NCBI GenBank assembly: GCA_039091855.1
Contig: JAWCLA010000011.1
Location: 1-16,769, forward strand
Direction of reading: 5' to 3'
DNA length: 16,769 nt
Origin: Candidatus Aenigmatarchaeota archaeon
GTDB taxonomy: Archaea; Aenigmatarchaeota; Aenigmatarchaeia; QMZP01
Below, piece by piece: positions 8,416 to 16,645 of this stretch. Every line of letters begins with the position of its first letter. Within the stretch, counting starts at the first letter, position 1. A model generated the notes under the pieces. That model saw only the letters and a program-made list of their open reading frames with translations. It was not told the origin of the DNA and ran no database searches. Both the position numbers and the translations under genes were made by a program.

Positions 8416-8712
8416 ATGCTTGAGTATTGGTTCTGGGTAACAGCTCCACTGGCAGTTTTCACTGCAATCGGTCTATTAATTTACAAGATGGGAAGATACC
8501 CCAGCAAAAAGGAGCCCGGAAAGGAGGAGGCTTATACGTGTGGCGAACCTATCCCAGACATAAATGTGAGGGCCGACAACTTTTACCAGTCGATAAAGAG
8601 GTCATTTAGGTTAAGAAAGATCCAACATATTCACACAGGAGACATCAACGACTATGTGCTATGGCTGGTTTTGGGGCTTGTTGTTTTAATTGTTTTGGTT
8701 GCGGTAATATGA
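8416..8712 (+). CDS. mbhI: Membrane-bound hydrogenase subunit, MbhI-like
   Basis: N-terminal TM helix, loop motif YTCGE, amphipathic helix, HTGDINDYV and a final TM helix, the architecture of Mbh subunit I. ATGA overlap with the small-subunit gene. Confidence 0.75.
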   Translation: MLEYWFWVTAPLAVFTAIGLLIYKMGRYPSKKEPGKEEAYTCGEPIPDINVRADNFYQSIKRSFRLRKIQHIHTGDINDYVLWLVLGLVVLIVLVAVI

Positions 8713-9164
8713 AAAGCAAAAATCCAAGTGTTAAACAGAGGCTAATAAATTACTGCAGGAAAAGGTCAGTTTGGATTCTACCATTCAATTCCGGCGGTTG
8801 CAACGGCTGCGCAATAGAGCTTTTGAGCTGCATATCTCCGAGAAGCGATGTTGAGAGGTTCGGGATTGTTGCCAAGGGTTCACCGAGGCACGCCGATGTC
8901 CTTGTTGTTGACGGGCCTGTGACAACAAAGATGAAGGAGAGGCTTTTGAGGGTTTATCACCAGATGCCTGAACCGAAGATGGTTGTGGCTCTCGGTTCTT
9001 GCACAGCATCAAATGGTGTTTTCGATGGATGCTACAATGTTTGCGGACCACTTGACAGGATAATACCCGTTGACGTTTGGGTTCCTGGCTGTCCACCAAG
9101 ACCGGAGGCAATAATACAGGGAATTCTCAAGGCAATGGAAAAGATTGAAAGGATGGAAAGATGA
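8709..9164 (+). CDS. mbhJ: Group 4 [NiFe]-hydrogenase small Fe-S subunit (MbhJ/EchC/HycG; NuoB family)
   Basis: GGCNGCAIE (CxxC as in hydrogenases, not the CC of NuoB), DVERFG, SPRHADVL, GSC and PGCPPRPE. Start reassigned to ATG 8709, coupled to the upstream stop. Confidence 0.9.
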   Translation: MKSKNPSVKQRLINYCRKRSVWILPFNSGGCNGCAIELLSCISPRSDVERFGIVAKGSPRHADVLVVDGPVTTKMKERLLRVYHQMPEPKMVVALGSCTASNGVFDGCYNVCGPLDRIIPVDVWVPGCPPRPEAIIQGILKAMEKIERMER

Positions 9165-9273
9165 GAGCATTTGTTTGTTGGCGATCAGCCCGATTGGTTT
9201 GTCAGGTAAAGGGTTTAAGTGGATTTTTGGCTCACGACAAACTTTTAAGGATTCACACATATTAATAATAAAT

Positions 9274-9933
9274 ATGATTAAGAGGATAACCCCCGCCATA
9301 ACACTAATTCAGCTTTCTGACATTGATTCAAACATATATGTTTTGGGAGACACCGTAATTGATTCAGGGACCGGTTTCAATTTTACCCGTCTTCACAGCC
9401 TGCTCAAAATACTGAAGCTGAACTTTTCAAGCATAAGGCAGGTGATAAACACGCACGGGCATTTCGACCACATAGGTGGAAACGGCTATTTTCTTAATGC
9501 AAAAGTTGCAATTCACGAGAGGGACGCACCCATATTGGAGAACGGTGACGTTCAAAACAGCTATGCTGATTTCTTTGACGGAAAGCTGAAGCCGAGGCCG
9601 GTTGACCATAAGCTGAAGGAAGGGCAGGTATTGCAGGTCAATGGAATGCAATTAAGGGTTTTGCACACACCTGGCCACACGCCAGGCTCAATCTGCCTTT
9701 ACAACGAGAAGGAAGGCATATTGTTCTCAGGGGACACTGTTTTTTCTGATGGAATTGGAAGGACTGACATGCCAGGAGGGGACATTGAAGAGCTTGATTC
9801 CTCCCTCCAAAAGCTTTCCAAGCTGAAAATAAACAAGATACTTCCTGGTCACGGTGATATAGTCCCTGAAAAGGGCGACAAGCTTCTTAAAGAACTTCTT
9901 ACGGCTGTTGAATCTCCCGAAGAGGAGGAGTAG
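9274..9933 (+). CDS. Metallo-beta-lactamase-fold hydrolase (glyoxalase II-like)
   Basis: THGHFDHIGG, HTPGHTPGS, FSGDT and LPGHG motifs. Start reassigned to ATG 9274, about 25 nt after TTTTAA. Confidence 0.93.
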   Translation: MIKRITPAITLIQLSDIDSNIYVLGDTVIDSGTGFNFTRLHSLLKILKLNFSSIRQVINTHGHFDHIGGNGYFLNAKVAIHERDAPILENGDVQNSYADFFDGKLKPRPVDHKLKEGQVLQVNGMQLRVLHTPGHTPGSICLYNEKEGILFSGDTVFSDGIGRTDMPGGDIEELDSSLQKLSKLKINKILPGHGDIVPEKGDKLLKELLTAVESPEEEE

Positions 9934-9980
9934 TCGTTTTTTGTGGTAAAGGATTTAATAAACAACAACATAGCTTAATT

Positions 9981-10652
9981 ATGTGTTCAGACTATTCCTT
10001 AATGACAATTAGTGAACTTGAAAAAAGGATAGAGCGAATTCTCAGGAAACAGCCGAGGCAGGACGACCTTTTCAGGGCGGTTGTTTTCATGGGACAGATG
10101 GATCTGGCAAAATTCATCTATCACGACAAGAGGCATTGCCCTGGAAACAGGTTCGTGAAGGGGCTTTCAAAATCCTCTGAGACAGCAGCGTTCGGGCAGG
10201 CGCTTGTACAGCTTCTCCTTCTTGCCAAGTCGAGGGGGATGAGCTTTCCTGATGTTTTCAGGTACGCTATTGAGCACATGGAAGATGATGAATGGAAGGC
10301 ACGCGTTCCTGAAAAATTAACAGAAATAAGGGGAATTCCTGCGTTTCGTGGAAAGGTCAAGGGAACTGCTTATGTCGCGTCAGCAAAAAGCCCTGCATCA
10401 AAGGCGCCAAAGGGCAGCATCTTGGTTACAGAGCACGCTGATTCTCAGGTTTCCCACCTTATAAAAAACTTCTCCGCGGTTGTTTCTGACCAGGGAGGGA
10501 GGCTCTGCCACCTTGCTGTTGTGGCAAGGGAGATGGGAATTCCTGCTGTGGTAGGGACAGGGAATGCGACAAGCCTGATAAAAACAGGCGACATTATTGA
10601 GGTTGACGCAAACACAGGAAGGGTTATGGTTGAAAGGGCATCCAAACAATAG
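9981..10652 (+). CDS. Fusion of a degenerate MazG-like all-alpha domain and a PEP-utilising phosphohistidine swivelling domain
   Basis: C-terminal half GGRLCHLAVVAREMGIPAVVG...IKTGDIIEVDANTGRV is a clear PEP-utilisers mobile domain. The N-terminal helices resemble MazG (lower confidence). Confidence 0.75.
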   Translation: MCSDYSLMTISELEKRIERILRKQPRQDDLFRAVVFMGQMDLAKFIYHDKRHCPGNRFVKGLSKSSETAAFGQALVQLLLLAKSRGMSFPDVFRYAIEHMEDDEWKARVPEKLTEIRGIPAFRGKVKGTAYVASAKSPASKAPKGSILVTEHADSQVSHLIKNFSAVVSDQGGRLCHLAVVAREMGIPAVVGTGNATSLIKTGDIIEVDANTGRVMVERASKQ

Positions 10653-10654
10653 CG

Positions 10655-11116
10655 TCAAAAAAGCAGCTTTCTGATATCCTCGGATAACCTGATGATGTTT
10701 ATCTTTTTGTTTTGCTCCTTCGTTATTATGCCTTTACTTTTAAGGGAATTAATAATCCTGAAAACCTTAACCTTTGGCAAGCCAGTCTGCCTTACTATAT
10801 CCGCCTGCGACATCTCTCCCTTGTTTTCCAGCAGGGCGCTTATAACTGCAGCATCATTCCTTTCCATAAAATTAAGCAGCAGTTTCTTGTCAATAGGCGG
10901 CTTCTCAAACTTGGGGGAAAGCAGGTAGTAAGCCAAAACCCCTATCATAAGACCCATCGAGCCTATGAGCGGGACAAAGAGGTAAATTGGAATAGCGCAA
11001 CCGCAGGCGTTTCCTGACGAAACCTGAATCTGAACGTAAAGTGAGCTTATGGCAACTACAAAAATGAACGCGGTGAGAATGAGCATTCCTGTCAGGAACT
11101 TCTTATGCGGGCTCAT
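10655..11116 (-). CDS. Membrane-anchored winged-helix (MarR-like) regulator
   Basis: Two hydrophobic helices separated by a loop containing CGC, followed by GEMSQADIVRQTGLPKVKVFRIINSLKSKGII (HTH) and a wing. Confidence 0.85.
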   Translation of the reverse strand: MSPHKKFLTGMLILTAFIFVVAISSLYVQIQVSSGNACGCAIPIYLFVPLIGSMGLMIGVLAYYLLSPKFEKPPIDKKLLLNFMERNDAAVISALLENKGEMSQADIVRQTGLPKVKVFRIINSLKSKGIITKEQNKKINIIRLSEDIRKLLF

Positions 11117-11244: not shown

Positions 11245-12069
11245 ATGAGAAAACTACTTGAATTTCTTTGCTATTCAAACCTTTACCTTGCGTTTGGTGC
11301 AGCAATAACCACGCTTTGCACGCTTTTTATGGCAGGATATCCTTTATTGTGGGATTTAGTTTTCATACCTTTTTCAGCTTCATTTTTGATATACAACCTC
11401 AACAGGTTTACAGACATTCATGAAGACAGCATAAATCTGCCGAACAGGACATCCTTTGTCAGGAAATTCGGCAGAAAAATCCTGTACGTTGCTCTAGTGC
11501 TTTATGTTTTTGCACTTTTCTTGGCATATCAGAGAGGTTTGTTGGCATTCATTTTCACTTTAATACCGCCTGTTGGCGGATTTTTCTATTCGTATTTCAG
11601 GCTGAAGACACTCTTTGTCATAAAGAACATAATGGTTGCTGCGCTTTGGGGATTTAACGTGCTTATAGTATGCGCTTTTTTCGGGGATTTCGGCTTTTTT
11701 ATGGTTCTATCTTATCTATTCTTCTTTTTGGCATTTCTCATCAATGTTGTGATATTTGACATAAAGGACATCAAGGGGGACAGCATAAATAAGATTGACA
11801 CGCTTCCTGTAAAAATCGGAATTAAATCAACAAAATCTTTTTGCCTTTCGATACTTGCTGCACTTTTGGCTATTTTGACAGTAATGCTGACCATCAACAT
11901 AAGAAGCATTGTATTGTTGCCATTCCTTTTTTTCATTGGTTTTTTCATCAAGTATGCCCAAGGTTCAGAAAACTCCCCATGGTGGTATTATGGGATTTTT
12001 GTTGACGGAGAGTTCTTTGTTATTCTTGCGTCAATATTTTTGTGGTTTGTTTTAGGGGTCGGTTTTTAG
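11245..12069 (+). CDS. UbiA-family intramembrane prenyltransferase
   Basis: Aspartate-rich motifs NRFTDIHED..N.P.R and FDIKDIKGD...TLPV, the YS motif and about 8-9 TM helices. Confidence 0.92.
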   Translation: MRKLLEFLCYSNLYLAFGAAITTLCTLFMAGYPLLWDLVFIPFSASFLIYNLNRFTDIHEDSINLPNRTSFVRKFGRKILYVALVLYVFALFLAYQRGLLAFIFTLIPPVGGFFYSYFRLKTLFVIKNIMVAALWGFNVLIVCAFFGDFGFFMVLSYLFFFLAFLINVVIFDIKDIKGDSINKIDTLPVKIGIKSTKSFCLSILAALLAILTVMLTINIRSIVLLPFLFFIGFFIKYAQGSENSPWWYYGIFVDGEFFVILASIFLWFVLGVGF

Positions 12070-12177
12070 CATTTTTATCTTTTTAAAAAAAATCAGGTGT
12101 TTGTAGTGCTGTATAAATTGGAAAAAAGGATTTTAAGTAAATTCACCTTATTTATGTATTTTTCCTAAAAATACAAT

Positions 12178-13302
12178 ATGGATATTGCAATAGTTGGCGG
12201 TGGGCCGGCAGGGGCGTACCTAGGTTATTGCCTGGCAAAGGAAGGGATAAAAGCAACAATCTTTGATGATTCCCACCCAAGAGAAAAGCCCTGTGGAGGA
12301 GGGATATCAGAGTTGGCACTAAGAAAATTTCCTTTTATCAAAAAAATTGATGGTGTTAAAGGTATAGGAAGAAAAATAAGAATTATTTCTCCTGTTGGAA
12401 CAGAGGCAGTAATTGGAAAGGGTTTTATAATGGGGATATCAAGGCTTTTGTTGGATAAATATATTCTTGAAATGGCAAAAAACGAAGGTGCGCAATTAAT
12501 AGAAGAAAGGGTATTAGATATAAAAGAAAAAAATAATTCTTGGATAATAAAAACGAATAAAGGAAATAAATATGCTAAACTTATAGTTGGTGCAGATGGA
12601 ACAAACAGTATTGTTAGGAAAAATATTTTAGGACCTCACAGCAAGGAAAATCTTACAATGACATATGGTTATATAGTAAAAGGTATTGAAAATGAACTTA
12701 CATTAATGAAGTTCCTCTGGGGCAAAAACGGATATATATGGGTTTTCCCAAGAGGAAATCATACAAGCATAGGTATCGGTACTGAACTTACAAAAAGTTT
12801 TGGAATTAAAAAACATCTCGATTTTTTTATTAAAAATTATTATCCAAGAGTTAAGAAGCTGCACCATTTTGCTGCTATGATTCCTACTATTACAAACCCT
12901 GAATTTTTTAGGTTACCTACAGCTGGAAAGAATTGGTTAGTTATTGGCGACGCCGCTGGGCATGTTGATCCTATAAGTGCAGAAGGTATAACTTATGCAT
13001 TATGGTCTGCAAAATTGGCAGCAAAAGCAATTATTTATTGTGAACCAGAAAAATTTGATGAACTTTGGAGAAAGGAATATGGAAATGAATTTATTGAGGC
13101 AATAAAACTAAAAAATATTCTTTACAATCCTTATGTTCTTGAAATTTCAATAAGGTTTGCAAAAAAAAGTAAAACTTATTCTCAATTTTTATATGACATT
13201 ATAACAAGCAGGCAAGAATATTCCAAATTGAAAAAAAGATTATTTTATGATTATAAAAAAATTATAATTGAGATAACAAAGGGTTATCTATATGGCAATT
13301 AA
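12178..13302 (+). CDS. Geranylgeranyl-reductase-family FAD-dependent oxidoreductase
   Basis: IVGGGPAG (FAD), PREKPCGGG, GADG, GYIWVFP and GDAAGHVDPISAEGI. Confidence 0.92.
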   Translation: MDIAIVGGGPAGAYLGYCLAKEGIKATIFDDSHPREKPCGGGISELALRKFPFIKKIDGVKGIGRKIRIISPVGTEAVIGKGFIMGISRLLLDKYILEMAKNEGAQLIEERVLDIKEKNNSWIIKTNKGNKYAKLIVGADGTNSIVRKNILGPHSKENLTMTYGYIVKGIENELTLMKFLWGKNGYIWVFPRGNHTSIGIGTELTKSFGIKKHLDFFIKNYYPRVKKLHHFAAMIPTITNPEFFRLPTAGKNWLVIGDAAGHVDPISAEGITYALWSAKLAAKAIIYCEPEKFDELWRKEYGNEFIEAIKLKNILYNPYVLEISIRFAKKSKTYSQFLYDIITSRQEYSKLKKRLFYDYKKIIIEITKGYLYGN

Positions 13303-14431
13303 AGATCTTATGTTTTCATGGTTTATAAAAAACATATTGATACCTAAAAATGAGATAATAGATAGGCCAGGATTTATTATATTAAAACTTAGTGATAAAA
13401 AGGAGATTACTAATATAAGAGAGGTTCTTCTTCCAGAAAAAATATTTGTAGATATAGAGAGAGAAATTATAAATAAATATAAAGAAAATGGGGCGCATCT
13501 TTTATATTCCATAGGTAAAAATTTTGGATACAGATATGCTTCTGTTTCTCATTATCCTTCTATTAAAGAAAAGGGAGAAAAGGATTTTTTAAAATTTACA
13601 TATTTTGTTATAAAATATCTCGAAAGCATCTATTCATCTAAAATAACTTATAAAATTGATATAAAAAGAAAGATTTTCAAAATTTATTTAAAAAACTACA
13701 TAGTCTGCAATAAAAATGGTTTGGGATATTTACTTACTGATGGTTCTATAACAGGTACATGTGCATATGGCGTTCAAGATTTTACTCTTGAAGGAACACA
13801 AATAAAATGTCAAGGCAGAGGCAATGAAAAGTGTGAATTTATATGTGCCCCTCCTGATTATTTTAAAAAAAAAGGAATGCATGTTTTTATAGAAAATAAT
13901 TTGTATGCGCCTGCAGTAGAAATAGATAAATATAACAATATAAATGCAATTAGAAATACTAAATTTGCTTCTAACTCGCTTCAATCACTGATAGATAGTG
14001 GTTTTATCGCATACAAAAATGGTATAATGAATGTTAAATTTGAAAGGTTTTTACTTATAGAAGCCTCAGTAATGTACCTCCTTGAATCCGGGCTTTCCAA
14101 GCTAAAAGACGGCCTAAAGATACTCTGGGACTGCAGCTTCTCTTTCGGGAAGAGGCTTGCGGAGATTTCCGGAAAGCAGGAACCCTGCAAGTTCATAACC
14201 GACCTTTTCCCTGCGCTTGGTTTTGGGGACATCCTGGCTGTGGAGAAGAAGGGAAAGTACGAGGTTTATGTTAATTACTTCCCCTGGATGGAATTCCCGG
14301 AAGTGGATTTTGTGATGTTCAGGGGGCTTTTGTCAGGGGTTATCTCGGGTTTCGTTGGAAGGAAAGTGGAGCTGAAGAAGATAGAGAAGGATATTTCCGC
14401 GGGCTATCTTTCGCTGTTTATATCAGAATAA
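13292..14431 (+). CDS. Tandem V4R-like (XylR-N/V4R) ligand-binding domain protein
   Basis: Domain 1 has LLYSIGKNFG, IVC...GSITG and KCQGRGNEKCEF (the V4R Cys signature). Domain 2 has GIM...ERFLL, LWDCSFSFG, LGFG and FRGLLSGVISG. Overlaps the reductase stop by 11 nt. Confidence 0.75.
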   Translation: MAIKDLMFSWFIKNILIPKNEIIDRPGFIILKLSDKKEITNIREVLLPEKIFVDIEREIINKYKENGAHLLYSIGKNFGYRYASVSHYPSIKEKGEKDFLKFTYFVIKYLESIYSSKITYKIDIKRKIFKIYLKNYIVCNKNGLGYLLTDGSITGTCAYGVQDFTLEGTQIKCQGRGNEKCEFICAPPDYFKKKGMHVFIENNLYAPAVEIDKYNNINAIRNTKFASNSLQSLIDSGFIAYKNGIMNVKFERFLLIEASVMYLLESGLSKLKDGLKILWDCSFSFGKRLAEISGKQEPCKFITDLFPALGFGDILAVEKKGKYEVYVNYFPWMEFPEVDFVMFRGLLSGVISGFVGRKVELKKIEKDISAGYLSLFISE

Positions 14432-14435
14432 AGGA

Positions 14436-15170
14436 TTAGTCGAGAAGCACGATTCCCTTGGCTGTTATGTCTATGCTGTGCCTACCACCATCTATTTTTG
14501 TTTTTCTCATCTTGGCGATAAGGATATTTCTTTGCATATGCTTGCCAACGCTCTCGGCCTCTAGCTTTATTATACCATCGACTATGAACTCTGCTATCCC
14601 GTAGCGGGAATATATAGTGTCTTGTGACTCTGATGTCAGGAGGGTTGTCAACCCCATGTCCTTAAAGGAGTCTATTGTTTTGTAAAGTGTCCTCCTGACT
14701 ATTGATTCCTGTCCTGGCATAAGGGATATCTTTTTCATTATTGCCCAGGAGGGAATGTCCTTTATTATGGACTGGAAGGTTGATGCAAAGATCTCTATTG
14801 ATGAAAGGGAATCTATAACAAGCCTTTTTGCATTGATTTTCTTTGCCTCAGTTTCTATTATTTTTAGTAATTCCGTTATGTCCTTTGTTTCCTTTATCCT
14901 TAATATAACCACCTTTCCTTCCTTTTCAAGCCTTTCAAAATCCATTCCAAGCTGCTTAACGGATTCTTTCAGTTCTGAAGGGCTGTTCTCAAAAGAAACA
15001 TAAAGGCCCGGCTCATTGTTAAGCGCTCCTGAATATATGTACTGAAGGCAGAATGTTGTCTTTCCTGTCCCAGGACCGCCAGAAACCAGTACAGTTGATC
15101 CCTTAGGGTATCCGCCTTCCATAAGCTTGTCTAGCTTTTGAATTCCTGTCTTTATCCTTTCAACAGGCAT
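14436..15170 (-). CDS. KaiC/RAD55-family single-domain ATPase
   Basis: RIKTGI..LD.L..GG.P, Walker A GGPGTGKT, Walker B LVIDS, EFIVDGII and KMR arginine finger. Confidence 0.94.
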   Translation of the reverse strand: MPVERIKTGIQKLDKLMEGGYPKGSTVLVSGGPGTGKTTFCLQYIYSGALNNEPGLYVSFENSPSELKESVKQLGMDFERLEKEGKVVILRIKETKDITELLKIIETEAKKINAKRLVIDSLSSIEIFASTFQSIIKDIPSWAIMKKISLMPGQESIVRRTLYKTIDSFKDMGLTTLLTSESQDTIYSRYGIAEFIVDGIIKLEAESVGKHMQRNILIAKMRKTKIDGGRHSIDITAKGIVLLD

Positions 15171-15280: not shown

Positions 15281-16645
15281 TTACTTCTTTTTTTCTGGTT
15301 TGGCCTTTTTCTCAGCAGTTTGTTGTGGCTTCACTTCCTGGCTCTCTATTTCCTCCTCTAGCTCGTCCTCAATCTCTTCTTTATCATCCTCTTTGGCATA
15401 TATTTTAACGCTTGTCTGTGCTCCTCTGAACCTTTTTGAAGCTGCAAATTTTGCCACAACGGTGCTGAAAATCACGGTGAGAATTATTGTAAAAACAACG
15501 CTGTTCAGGATTTTTTCAGCCTCTGCTCCATAGTTTGCAGCCACAAGTGCCCCTGCAACTATTGGAGCCATGGCAGCTGCATCTATTCCCCTCGGTGCAA
15601 CAAAAGACATCACAAAAAGCTCCTGCCTCGTGTAGCTCTTTCTTTCGCTGCCCAACAGAGGGACAAGGGTTATCGGCCTTATCATAACTATAGCTATGAA
15701 GAAAAGCAGGGAAAGTATAATCTCATTGATACCAAGGAAAAGCGTGACCTGCGCGCCAAGGAATGTGAACACGGCTATCCTCAGCATTTCTGAAAAATGG
15801 TCCTCAAACCTCTTTACCTCTTCCTTTTCCGGAAATGCCATATCACCGACTATCAATCCGCAAACAGCCACTGCAAGTATGCCTGAGCCTCCTACATATT
15901 CCGCGGCCGCAAAAGTAAGAAGTGAAATTGACAGCAAAAGAAGAACCGTGTACTCCTCGACCATTCTTCTCACAAGCTTGGCAAAGCCTATGCCTAAAAC
16001 TATTCCTGCACCCACCCCTGCAATGATCATTTCGACAAACTTTGAGAAGTAAAGCATAGGTTGTATCTGGGCTCCTGGCTGGAGAGCAAGGAAGTCAAGC
16101 AATATGAGCGGTATCAGTATGCAAATTGGCGAATTGAAAATGGCCTCGCTCTTTAAAATCGTGAGGGGCCTTTTGTAATCCTTAAGCACGGCATCAAAGG
16201 TGAAAATTATCGCGTCAGCCGTGCCGCTTAAAATGCCGCCCAGAAGGAAGGCAAAGACCCACTCAAGGCCAAATATGAAATGTGCTGCAGCCCCTATAAG
16301 AATGGTATTGACAACAGCCGTTACGAAAGCTAGCTTTATTGCAACGCCTGATGACTTTTTGAACACCCTGAAGCCAACATTAAACATACCCGTAAACACT
16401 ATCAATACAAGGGCAAGCGTCCTGAGGAAATCAGGAACATTTCCCATCTCACCTATGTTTATCGGCTCTATCTTTACATACTGGGCAATAGCAGGGTTTC
16501 CCAGCACGGTGGGCCCAAGTATCAGGCCCAGCAATATAAGGAAAACCGTGTCTGGGAAATTCCTTTTCTTGAAAACATTTGCTATCAAAACCCCAAGCCC
16601 CAGAAGTATTGCAAAATATGTTATGGTTGTTATCACATCAGACAT
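15281..16645 (-). CDS. CPA1/NhaP-family cation:proton antiporter homologue with altered ion-binding motifs
   Basis: About 12-13 TM helices; LILLGLILGP, SE.IFN.P, GGSGILAV, F.FLG and PRG motifs; charged C-terminal tail. Confidence 0.88.
   Translation of the reverse strand: MSDVITTITYFAILLGLGVLIANVFKKRNFPDTVFLILLGLILGPTVLGNPAIAQYVKIEPINIGEMGNVPDFLRTLALVLIVFTGMFNVGFRVFKKSSGVAIKLAFVTAVVNTILIGAAAHFIFGLEWVFAFLLGGILSGTADAIIFTFDAVLKDYKRPLTILKSEAIFNSPICILIPLILLDFLALQPGAQIQPMLYFSKFVEMIIAGVGAGIVLGIGFAKLVRRMVEEYTVLLLLSISLLTFAAAEYVGGSGILAVAVCGLIVGDMAFPEKEEVKRFEDHFSEMLRIAVFTFLGAQVTLFLGINEIILSLLFFIAIVMIRPITLVPLLGSERKSYTRQELFVMSFVAPRGIDAAAMAPIVAGALVAANYGAEAEKILNSVVFTIILTVIFSTVVAKFAASKRFRGAQTSVKIYAKEDDKEEIEDELEEEIESQEVKPQQTAEKKAKPEKKK

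Follow-up and report, generated by a model that had tools for sequence, protein, structure and literature searches.

A conserved UbiA, GGR, tandem V4R and KaiC gene cassette in an Aenigmatarchaeota genome: a possible route to making and controlling a special membrane lipid

The stretch of DNA analysed here (the window, 16,769 nucleotides) forms the first 16.8 kb of a contig (C3) in the genome (G000) of a hot-spring Aenigmatarchaeota archaeon, which comprises 689 kb in 38 contigs and is estimated to be 84% complete. It carries four genes, referred to below as the cassette, that encode a membrane prenyltransferase of the UbiA superfamily, a flavoenzyme of the geranylgeranyl reductase (GGR) family, a protein with two V4R-like domains, and a KaiC-type ATPase (Table 1). 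The cassette may represent an undescribed route to making and controlling a special membrane lipid. Re-reading of the sequence confirmed the four open reading frames (ORFs) where a sequence-only reading of this DNA had placed them, along with the 11 nucleotides (nt) shared by the GGR and V4R frames (13292-13302) and the 4-nt gap between the convergent V4R and KaiC stops (TAA at 14429-14431, AGGA, then TTA at 14436-14438). Each of the four frames is intact and has the full length of its homologues. The spacer between the UbiA and GGR genes, which has T-runs immediately 3' of the UbiA stop and TATA-like strings 5' of the GGR start, may mark a boundary between two transcripts. As that reading had also stated, the window holds no further lipid or quinone gene, none being present among the 13 other ORFs scanned.

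Table 1. Features of the window and, in the last two rows, related loci on other contigs of the same genome
Feature	Position	Strand	Length, content or basis
UbiA-superfamily membrane prenyltransferase	11245..12069	+	274 aa; PF01040
AT-rich spacer, 108 nt	12070..12177	.	direct sequence reading
Geranylgeranyl-reductase-family flavoenzyme (GGR)	12178..13302	+	374 aa; TIGR02032
Tandem V4R protein	13292..14431	+	379 aa; structure model and fold matches
V4R protein domain 1 (residues 1-203)	13292..13900	+	full XylR_N+V4R-type sensor fold
V4R protein domain 2 (residues 230-379)	13979..14431	+	V4R/Bet3-like fold
Single-domain KaiC/RecA-type ATPase	14436..15170	-	244 aa; PF06745; convergent on V4R gene
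Low-GC tract	12320..14059	.	change-point fit; borders inside GGR and V4R frames
Left border: winged-helix regulator (DUF7343/MarR/TrmB-like)	10655..11116	-	Pfam DUF7343, 43.4 bits; divergent from UbiA gene
Right border: CPA1-type cation/proton antiporter	15281..16645	-	PF00999, 130.3 bits
Second locus	C12:45321-50199 (L050:4321-9199)		UbiA (484 aa)> <GGR-like (328 aa) <V4R (206 aa) <KaiC (229 aa), IdsA/GGPP synthase>
Third locus	C4:15271-21149 (L051:5271-11149)		UbiA 264 aa, divergent polyprenyl-synthase-like 328 aa, 334-aa tandem-V4R-like, two KaiCs

An AlphaFold model of the V4R protein built on 23 homologues (pLDDT 88.2, pTM 0.89) has two domains. The first (residues 6-203) matches the phenol-sensor domains of PoxR, MopR and DmpR with Z scores of 10.3-11.1 (PoxR: Z 11.1, rmsd 3.8, 179 residues aligned; DmpR: Z 10.3). 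Residues 230-379 superpose on a Bet3-family chain (Z 8.5, rmsd 3.0, 122 aligned) and on the V4R protein MJ1460 (Z 7.9, rmsd 4.2, 129 aligned), scores (Z ~8) that lie in the range which the tool describes as possibly only a common arrangement; positions 228-293 of the family profile also match MopR residues 18-86 (E 2.5e-4). Because the two-domain model is confident and has these fold matches, and because domain 2 has the MopR profile match in addition, the tandem V4R assignment holds. The label given in the earlier reading therefore stands, with both halves matching V4R or sensor folds in the model, though the Pfam score of the protein falls short. One Bet3-family entry among the fold matches carries a title that names covalently bound palmitic acid.

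The two domains differ in their conserved residues. Domain 1, and only domain 1, has a Cys cluster: C139, E167, C173 and C181 are invariant in all 23 sequences, a grouping that we take to be like the zinc site of XylR, DmpR, MopR and PoxR. (Equivalence to the MopR/PoxR zinc site at the level of sequence was considered and rejected, since domain 1 alone matches no sensor-domain chain.) In the same 23 sequences, domain 2 has no Cys cluster; it has a conserved GFGD motif, whose residues G310, G312 and D313 are invariant or nearly so. Passages of PMC5847659 name a three-Cys cluster as a V4R feature. According to passages of PMC2253512, V4R domains are believed to be receptors of hydrophobic ligands that signal in cis or in trans, and Bet3 is derived from prokaryotic V4R. 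The claim that the protein lacks an output domain agrees with its family: the 72 near-length relatives (29-57% identity) are all 248-385 aa, and of 186 cluster representatives recovered at E <= 1e-30 among 1.84 billion, the best 150 are at most 391 aa. No fused relative of 665-2000 aa turned up, which is weak evidence by the tool's own word.

The UbiA protein belongs to its superfamily by Pfam PF01040 (65.7 bits; gathering cut-off 34.2) and reaches no NCBIfam equivalog, the best being PRK13591 (65.4 bits versus 238). In particular, it lies below the equivalogs for digeranylgeranylglyceryl phosphate (DGGGP) synthase (PRK12882, 52.9 versus 296; PRK12883, 56.0 versus 353) and below the BchG/ChlG models (39.8-41.6 bits versus cut-offs of 212-313). 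The same is true of the group as a whole, in that none of 25 cassette UbiAs comes near any NCBIfam equivalog cut-off (best E-value 1e-27; cut-offs of at least 238 bits). The nearest solved relatives of the cassette UbiA profile are DGGGP synthase 6M31 (E 3e-16) and then chlorophyll synthase (E 1.6e-10), and in the UbiA tree 30 cassette UbiAs cluster together (SH-aLRT 94), apart from the enzyme that the genome encodes on contig C28. As judged by these comparisons, the window UbiA is a divergent enzyme, like DGGGP synthase and chlorophyll synthase and an orthologue of neither. UbiA enzymes have two Asp-rich motifs that bind metal and diphosphate; the window protein has both (N53-x3-D57-x3-D61 and D172-x2-D175-x3-D179). 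Among the 25 cassette UbiAs, K127, D172, D175, D179 and T186 are invariant and Y50, D61, R68, P188, G192 and D254 are conserved in 90% or more; D57 is kept in fewer than 60% of 23 rows.

The reductase is likewise a member of its family (TIGR02032, 179.4 bits; cut-off 158.8) that falls below the equivalogs for BchP/ChlP (131.6 versus 343.3), MenJ (64.3 versus 700) and digeranylgeranylglycerophospholipid (DGGGPL) reductase (66.8-80.6 bits across the models, the 80.6 being set against a cut-off of 580). When it is aligned to its nearest solved relative, the Thermoplasma GGR 3OZ2 (E 5e-15), the GGGPAG, GYIWVFP and GDAA motifs and the cysteine of KPCGGG are in place; the PCGG cysteine is present in at least 85% of 12 cassette GGRs. 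A PxxYxWxFP motif of GGRs is named in passages of PMC10821996, and in the window protein its leading P is replaced by K. In the GGR tree, nine cassette GGRs form a clade (support 99) that is separate from the two copies found elsewhere in the genome, on contigs C1 and C23, indicating that the window GGR is a cassette-specific paralogue.

The ATPase has one KaiC domain in its 244 aa (PF06745, 205.1 bits; cut-off 26.6) and matches Pyrococcus PH0186 (2ZTS) over its full length (143.9 bits). It is neither circadian KaiC (NF006799, 151 bits versus 408) nor ArlH (60.5 versus 215). Its Walker A (GGPGTGKT), catalytic E61 and Walker B (LVIDS) are present, and the corresponding G-x-G-K, E61 and V-x-D-S are conserved in 85% or more of 22 cassette KaiCs. 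Given the retained Asp motifs of UbiA, the FAD and Cys motifs of GGR, and the Walker A/B and Glu motifs of KaiC, the two enzymes and the ATPase look active.

The simplest account of the two enzymes would be that they are the plain finishing enzymes of archaeol synthesis, DGGGP synthase and DGGGPL reductase, next to two unrelated neighbours. The identity of their nearest solved relatives (6M31 for the UbiA profile, 3OZ2 for the reductase) is in keeping with this account. However, the genome has better candidates for both. It has four UbiA genes, and the UbiA on C28 scores 271.6 bits on the DGGGP synthase model PRK12882, versus 52.9 for the window UbiA; similarly, the GGR on C1 scores 262 on TIGR02032 and 307.6 on the DGGGPL-reductase model, versus 179 and 66.8-80.6 for the window GGR. 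The trees that set the cassette clades apart from the C28 UbiA and from the C1 and C23 GGRs agree with the earlier supposition that the cassette enzymes are not the housekeeping archaeol copies, and on these sequence grounds the window UbiA and GGR are separate from the housekeeping genes. When one adds that no cassette UbiA approaches an equivalog cut-off, and that the cassette is missing from 284 of the 301 sampled genomes of the phylum, a distribution ill-suited to an essential step, this account has scarcely any chance of being correct.

The remainder of the pathway is found elsewhere in the genome: an HMG-CoA reductase (391.5 bits), a thiolase with a DUF35-type partner, IdsA/GGPP synthase, a CDP-alcohol phosphatidyltransferase, and a G1P-dehydrogenase-like gene that adjoins the GGGP synthase gene. 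CarS is the only archaeol-pathway gene not found in this 84% complete genome. The earlier reading had raised the possibility that the enzymes work on host-derived precursors in a reduced symbiont; this idea did not survive, since the genome encodes isoprenoid and archaeol pathway genes of its own (those for HMG-CoA reductase, thiolase, GGPP synthase, the G1P-dehydrogenase-like protein and GGGP synthase), which makes host precursors needless.

Insight into the cassette as a unit comes from 32 loci that encode the V4R protein in genomes of other species, in which all ORFs were clustered into families. The linkage supposed from the window is borne out: beside the V4R homologues UbiA recurs in 27 of the 32 loci, KaiC in 26 and GGR in 12. 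No further family is present in more than four of them, and no regulator, pilus or motility gene recurs. (The winged-helix regulator that borders the cassette was considered as a member of the unit and rejected, because it recurs in only one of the 32 loci, L011.) KaiC directly adjoins V4R in 24 loci and is one gene away in two. The gene order differs by phylum, being UbiA>(GGR>)V4R> <KaiC in Aenigmatarchaeota and KaiC>V4R> <(GGR)<UbiA(<UbiA) in Thermoplasmatota, but V4R is placed between the enzymes and KaiC throughout. V4R is also the downstream member of a tight pair. Its frame shares 4-11 nt with UbiA or GGR in five cases (L009, L012, L019, L014 and the window), while in eight loci (L018, L020, L022, L023, L024, L026, L027 and L037) it follows KaiC by 2-11 nt. 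Thus, V4R is the constant middle piece: operon structure joins it with the enzymes in one lineage and with the ATPase in the second. The carriers of the cassette are Aenigmatarchaeota, Thermoplasmatota, Micrarchaeota and one Altiarchaeota record. (A 5.2-kb contig in a record titled Spirochaetes bacterium, L014, has all four genes, each of which groups with Aenigmatarchaeota in the V4R, KaiC, UbiA and GGR trees; this contig is probably mis-binned.) Taken together, these neighbourhoods establish that the four genes are a conserved unit, in an arrangement far beyond chance.

Most of the incomplete loci are cut short. Of the six without KaiC, three (L021, L033, L034) lie on contigs that stop no more than 38 nt from the V4R start, on the side where KaiC is found in that clade; a fragment of KaiC lies at the contig edge of L029, the L030 contig ends after UbiA, and the sixth, L010, is taken up below. 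Among the five that lack UbiA, the contig breaks off at the V4R gene in three, and the other two have a broken V4R. In L011:3713-4840 V4R is split into 150 and 221 aa, and in L016:5995-6693 it is a 232-aa C-terminal remnant; both loci have ample upstream DNA, no UbiA, and KaiC adjoining, and they look like decaying cassettes. (L016 and the intact L008 come from one and the same assembly.)

These remnants, in which KaiC and V4R are retained without UbiA, bear on the proposal that KaiC and V4R form a general-purpose switch, serving transcription, motility or surface structures, that merely travels with UbiA. KaiC paralogues are numerous in the genome, and the cassette KaiCs are polyphyletic, as such a switch would allow. 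On the other hand, UbiA accompanies V4R in 27 of 32 loci while nothing outside the cassette families recurs, both loci that lack UbiA have a split or truncated V4R, which looks like decay, and two more loci in the same genome join KaiC and a V4R-like protein with isoprenoid enzymes. We consider that a general-purpose switch has little chance of being the answer.

Those two loci, on contigs C12 and C4, each combine UbiA, a V4R-like protein and KaiC. In the C12 locus KaiC, V4R and the GGR-like gene form an operon on the minus strand with gaps of 4 nt and 1 nt, respectively; UbiA converges on this operon and the GGPP synthase gene diverges from KaiC. In the ESM Atlas, the 206-aa protein resembles V4R proteins (feature score 0.93; best ten matches all V4R, TM 0.88), although the match by hhalign is weak (E 3.7e-4). 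Reductases of the same type as that of C12 occur in the tandem-V4R cassettes of L006 (E 6e-52) and L017 (E 1e-41) and share a clade with it (support 100); the cassette KaiCs of L019 and L007 are the sister group of the C12 KaiC. The C12 UbiA, at 484 aa, has a 200-aa N-terminal extension. A KaiC divergent from IdsA/GGPP synthase is seen in two Aenigmatarchaeota genomes (L007:5079-7641 and C12:48385-50199 of the present genome), and because this pair is common to both, the KaiC link may extend to the step that supplies prenyl diphosphates.

In the C4 locus, the 334-aa protein aligns to the tandem-V4R profile over 296 columns (E 6.8e-4, probability 27%) and is structurally like a V4R-annotated cluster (TM 0.61); its identification as a tandem V4R is a lead. 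This locus also has a response regulator, a 187-aa protein with weak KaiC/DUF835/DUF7504 matches and a 112-aa ORF, and its second KaiC is cut by the contig end. The ESM Atlas contains a 51-member Thermoplasmatota cluster named 'DUF835/V4R domain-containing protein'; if DUF835 is, as we presume, a degenerate KaiC-like domain, that cluster would fuse the V4R and KaiC families. The presence of three variant copies in a genome of only 0.69 Mb, with few genes to spare, makes it likely that the function of the cassette is important to the cell.

Building on the gene content, the folds, the intact catalytic motifs, the linkage kept under rearrangement, the separateness from the housekeeping genes and the lineage-specific presence, we infer a ligand, a contact between V4R and KaiC, and a direction of control. 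The cassette would be a mobile, accessory unit for prenyl lipids. Its V4R protein would bind a hydrophobic substrate or product and would link the enzymes with KaiC, which in turn controls the branch; we give this reading somewhat less than an even chance of being right. It would form a side branch of isoprenoid-lipid chemistry beside the ordinary archaeol pathway, in which UbiA would move a prenyl chain onto a membrane acceptor and the dedicated GGR-type flavoenzyme would saturate prenyl double bonds. Domain 1 of V4R, with its Cys3/Glu cluster, would bind the hydrophobic substrate or product, and the state of occupancy would be relayed through the whole V4R protein to the neighbouring hexameric KaiC-type ATPase. 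Such a relay would resemble the way in which a V4R sensor domain gates the AAA+ ATPase in regulators of the XylR/DmpR/MopR type, but it would act in trans. KaiC would then set the activity of the branch, via ATP hydrolysis or autophosphorylation.

The operon geometry fits this relay, but it fits equally well a role for V4R as carrier or chaperone, that is, as a soluble holder that would shuttle a greasy substrate or intermediate between the reductase, which is peripheral, and the prenyltransferase, which is integral to the membrane, while KaiC drives loading, release or membrane extraction. Such a role has been proposed for BchJ in the synthesis of bacteriochlorophyll. The set of UbiA, GGR and V4R parallels BchG, BchP and BchJ, whose genes we take to be adjacent in purple bacteria. 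Passages of PMC4432870 state that BchJ does not act as a vinyl reductase; it may instead aid the enzymes of the pathway by serving as a substrate carrier, scaffold or chaperone. The BchP/ChlP model gives the window GGR a higher score (131.6) than does the model for DGGGPL reductase (80.6), chlorophyll synthase is second among the solved relatives of the cassette UbiA profile, and the fold match with a palmitic-acid title also suits a carrier. In addition, the translational coupling of V4R in Aenigmatarchaeota is with the enzymes and not with KaiC. In Thermoplasmatota, however, V4R is coupled to KaiC and converges on the enzymes, the best matches of domain 1 are the sensor domains of regulators, and no component is orthologous to a Bch protein. 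Furthermore, we know of no KaiC-type ATPase that acts on lipids. A carrier or chaperone is the main alternative to the relay, though unlikely in our judgement.

Several observations besides the ambiguous geometry weigh against the sensing relay that we prefer. The window V4R protein scores below the Pfam V4R (PF02830) cut-off (20.2 versus 31, with a partial match at residues 167-184), and precomputed Pfam annotation assigns V4R to four of the 72 relatives; the fold scores of domain 2 are in the equivocal range already noted. GGR is optional, with 12 of 32 loci having it, and thus saturation is not essential to the unit. L010, the only locus without KaiC that has about 6 kb on both sides, has UbiA and V4R. 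Finally, the KaiCs adjacent to V4R do not cluster as a single clade; at least four groups can be distinguished, among which non-cassette paralogues from the present genome are interspersed (the deep nodes are weak), and because of this polyphyly KaiC may be a replaceable, generic partner. A prediction of the V4R-KaiC complex (alignments A1 and A2) gave a score of 0.00 and a mark of 0.32, run without controls, and counts neither for nor against binding.

The distribution and insertion site indicate how the cassette may have come to its present position. Of the 301 sampled genomes of the phylum, 17 have the tandem-V4R gene; it occurs in 5 of the 98 that are of high quality, and in none of the four others of the same genus (78-92% complete). 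These relatives retain the borders: orthologues of the winged-helix regulator are found in G089, G107, G231 and G279 (E 1e-74 to 8e-80) and those of the antiporter in G089, G107 and G231 (about E 1e-200), all in genomes without the cassette. In each of the three genomes that have both flanks on one contig (G089, G107 and G231), the flanks enclose a class-V aminotransferase and a protein of about 267 aa, and no cassette gene. The present genome has no homologue of the 267-aa protein, and the aminotransferase is represented only by a 28%-identical paralogue. Because the relatives keep the flanks around the aminotransferase block, and because the present genome lacks the 267-aa protein and has only a distant paralogue of the aminotransferase, the four-gene block is a lineage-specific replacement at this site. 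At the three sites (L065, L066 and L067, from G089, G231 and G107, respectively), the aminotransferase is cysteine-desulfurase-like and the conserved 267-aa protein belongs to no family, while the extras vary (a beta-propeller, a HAD hydrolase or a 183-aa ORF). The interval between regulator and antiporter looks like a variable spot. The cassette was probably imported and is probably traded horizontally. The window shows no tRNA, no convincing flanking direct repeats and no Rfam match as marks of a mobile element. To the left of the regulator (8661-10652) lie a stand-alone NuoB/hydrogenase-small-subunit-like gene (Oxidored_q6), which overlaps the start of a metallo-beta-lactamase-fold gene, and then a gene for a 223-aa protein consisting only of the mobile domain of PEP-utilising enzymes; these are odd orphans for a small genome.

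Base composition changes within the cassette. The low-GC tract (1.7 kb) has 27.9% GC versus 40.1% around it, with borders near GGR codon 48 and V4R codon 256; in the change-point fit, the 2-lnL limits of the borders are 12300-12455 and 14040-14085. GC content at third codon positions (GC3) is 0.21 in GGR, the lowest of the 505 ORFs of at least 150 aa in the genome, and it switches within V4R from 0.16 (residues 1-220) to 0.52 (residues 221-379). The tract is the lowest-GC stretch of the genome, tied with C19:8500-10857, an AT-rich contig end (~28% GC) that includes an ORF at 8673-10424 (- strand) with a GC3 of 0.22. A similar pattern is seen in a Thermoplasmatota locus (L022:6031-8130), where a low-GC tract (33% versus 50%) takes in V4R and GGR from about codon 56, with a host-like composition in KaiC, UbiA and the flanks; the GGR of this locus groups with an Aenigmatarchaeota GGR (SH-aLRT 94). 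A low GC content is not a constant property of cassettes, an idea that was rejected: across 23 loci with at least three flanking genes (22 relatives and the window), the cassette-minus-flank GC3 averages -0.03, is negative in 16 and is below -0.05 in 8.

The switch within V4R raised the possibility of intragenic recombination. Compared with L006, the window V4R is 71% identical over residues 221-379 and 40% over residues 1-220. The tree of the N-terminal half rejects a clade of the window, L006, L008 and L009 (AU p 1.3e-8, for a group named after the identities had been seen). In the tree of the C-terminal half, the window falls in the same clade as in that of the N-terminal half (SH-aLRT 89), with L006, L008 and L009 on very short branches. 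Recombination within V4R as judged by phylogenetic incongruence was therefore rejected, since the half-trees agree for the window and only the switch in composition stands. Consequently, patchwise recombination is a reading of composition only.

These features of the site and its composition could also mean that the cassette is a recent foreign import that is decaying or silent, or that it is an assembly chimera. Its absence from all four other genomes of the genus, the aminotransferase block that occupies the site in all three genomes with both flanks on one contig, and the GC3 of GGR, lowest among 505 ORFs, would be compatible with such an origin. Against it, the four frames are intact and full-length, with catalytic and invariant residues kept, and the unitigs of sequencing run X1 span both GC borders without differences and at similar depth, though this run may be the sample of the metagenome-assembled genome itself and is thus not independent. 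We regard decay, silence or a chimera as having a very slim chance.

On a bolder reading, V4R and KaiC might be an ATP-driven lipid-handling device that feeds prenyl lipid to, or withdraws it from, dedicated UbiAs, with the enzyme genes and the ligand-binding half of V4R being swapped between cassettes by recombination. This idea is quite unlikely to be correct. Were it true, the cassette would be an exchangeable kit with which tiny episymbiotic archaea re-tailor their membrane or surface lipids, and it would provide the first lipid-directed role for a KaiC-family ATPase and a prokaryotic membrane function for the V4R/Bet3 fold.

How archaea regulate and diversify the synthesis of their membrane lipids is largely unknown, and KaiC-like ATPases are almost without assigned targets. 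The cassette offers a compact pair, a hydrophobic-ligand-binding protein and an ATPase, each linked through gene order with one particular prenyltransferase and reductase. The distribution of the cassette, which is patchy and involves replacement at a locus, suggests a trade in lipid-tailoring functions among small archaea, with a bearing on how DPANN-type envelopes are built and on the reading of archaeal lipid biomarkers. The gene set is not described in the literature searched on KaiC, V4R, UbiA/prenyltransferase, GGR and Aenigmarchaeota lipids, although an arCOG neighbourhood table with the KaiC hub paper could already list the association. The review of GGR multiplicity (PMC10821996) has no KaiC, UbiA, V4R or DPANN terms, and BchJ is not mentioned in PMC9066304.

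The cassette has counterparts in several known systems, each of which it resembles only in part. Like XylR, DmpR, MopR and PoxR, it has the fold of domain 1 (over ~175 residues, Z 10.3-11.1) and pairs a candidate hydrophobic-ligand sensor with an oligomeric P-loop ATPase. Unlike them, it encodes sensor and ATPase as separate proteins, its ATPase is of the RecA/KaiC type and not the AAA+ sigma-54 type, there is no DNA-binding domain, the sensor is in tandem, and the partners are membrane-lipid enzymes and not catabolic operons. The archaeal single-domain KaiC-like ATPases (PH0186/2ZTS, PH0284, SSO2452, ArlH) have been proposed as signalling hubs. The window KaiC shares full-length similarity with PH0186 and keeps the Walker A/B and Glu residues, but it scores below every curated equivalog cut-off and is tied to a V4R protein and a prenyltransferase. 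In the bchJ-bchG-bchP set of purple bacteria, a V4R protein (BchJ), a UbiA-type enzyme (BchG) and a GGR-type enzyme (BchP) likewise serve one prenylated product; however, there is no orthology, the hosts of the cassette are non-phototrophic archaea, its V4R is tandem, and KaiC is added. With DGGGP synthase and DGGGPL reductase the cassette enzymes share superfamilies, nearest structures (6M31 and 3OZ2) and catalytic motifs, but they are paralogues, patchy and not universal, always found with V4R and nearly always with KaiC. Lastly, domain 2 and part of domain 1 superpose on chains of the Bet3 family (Z 8.2-9.4), as in the eukaryotic Bet3/TRAPP subunits, a likeness that is seen here by fold and not by sequence, and in a cassette that has no vesicle-tethering context.

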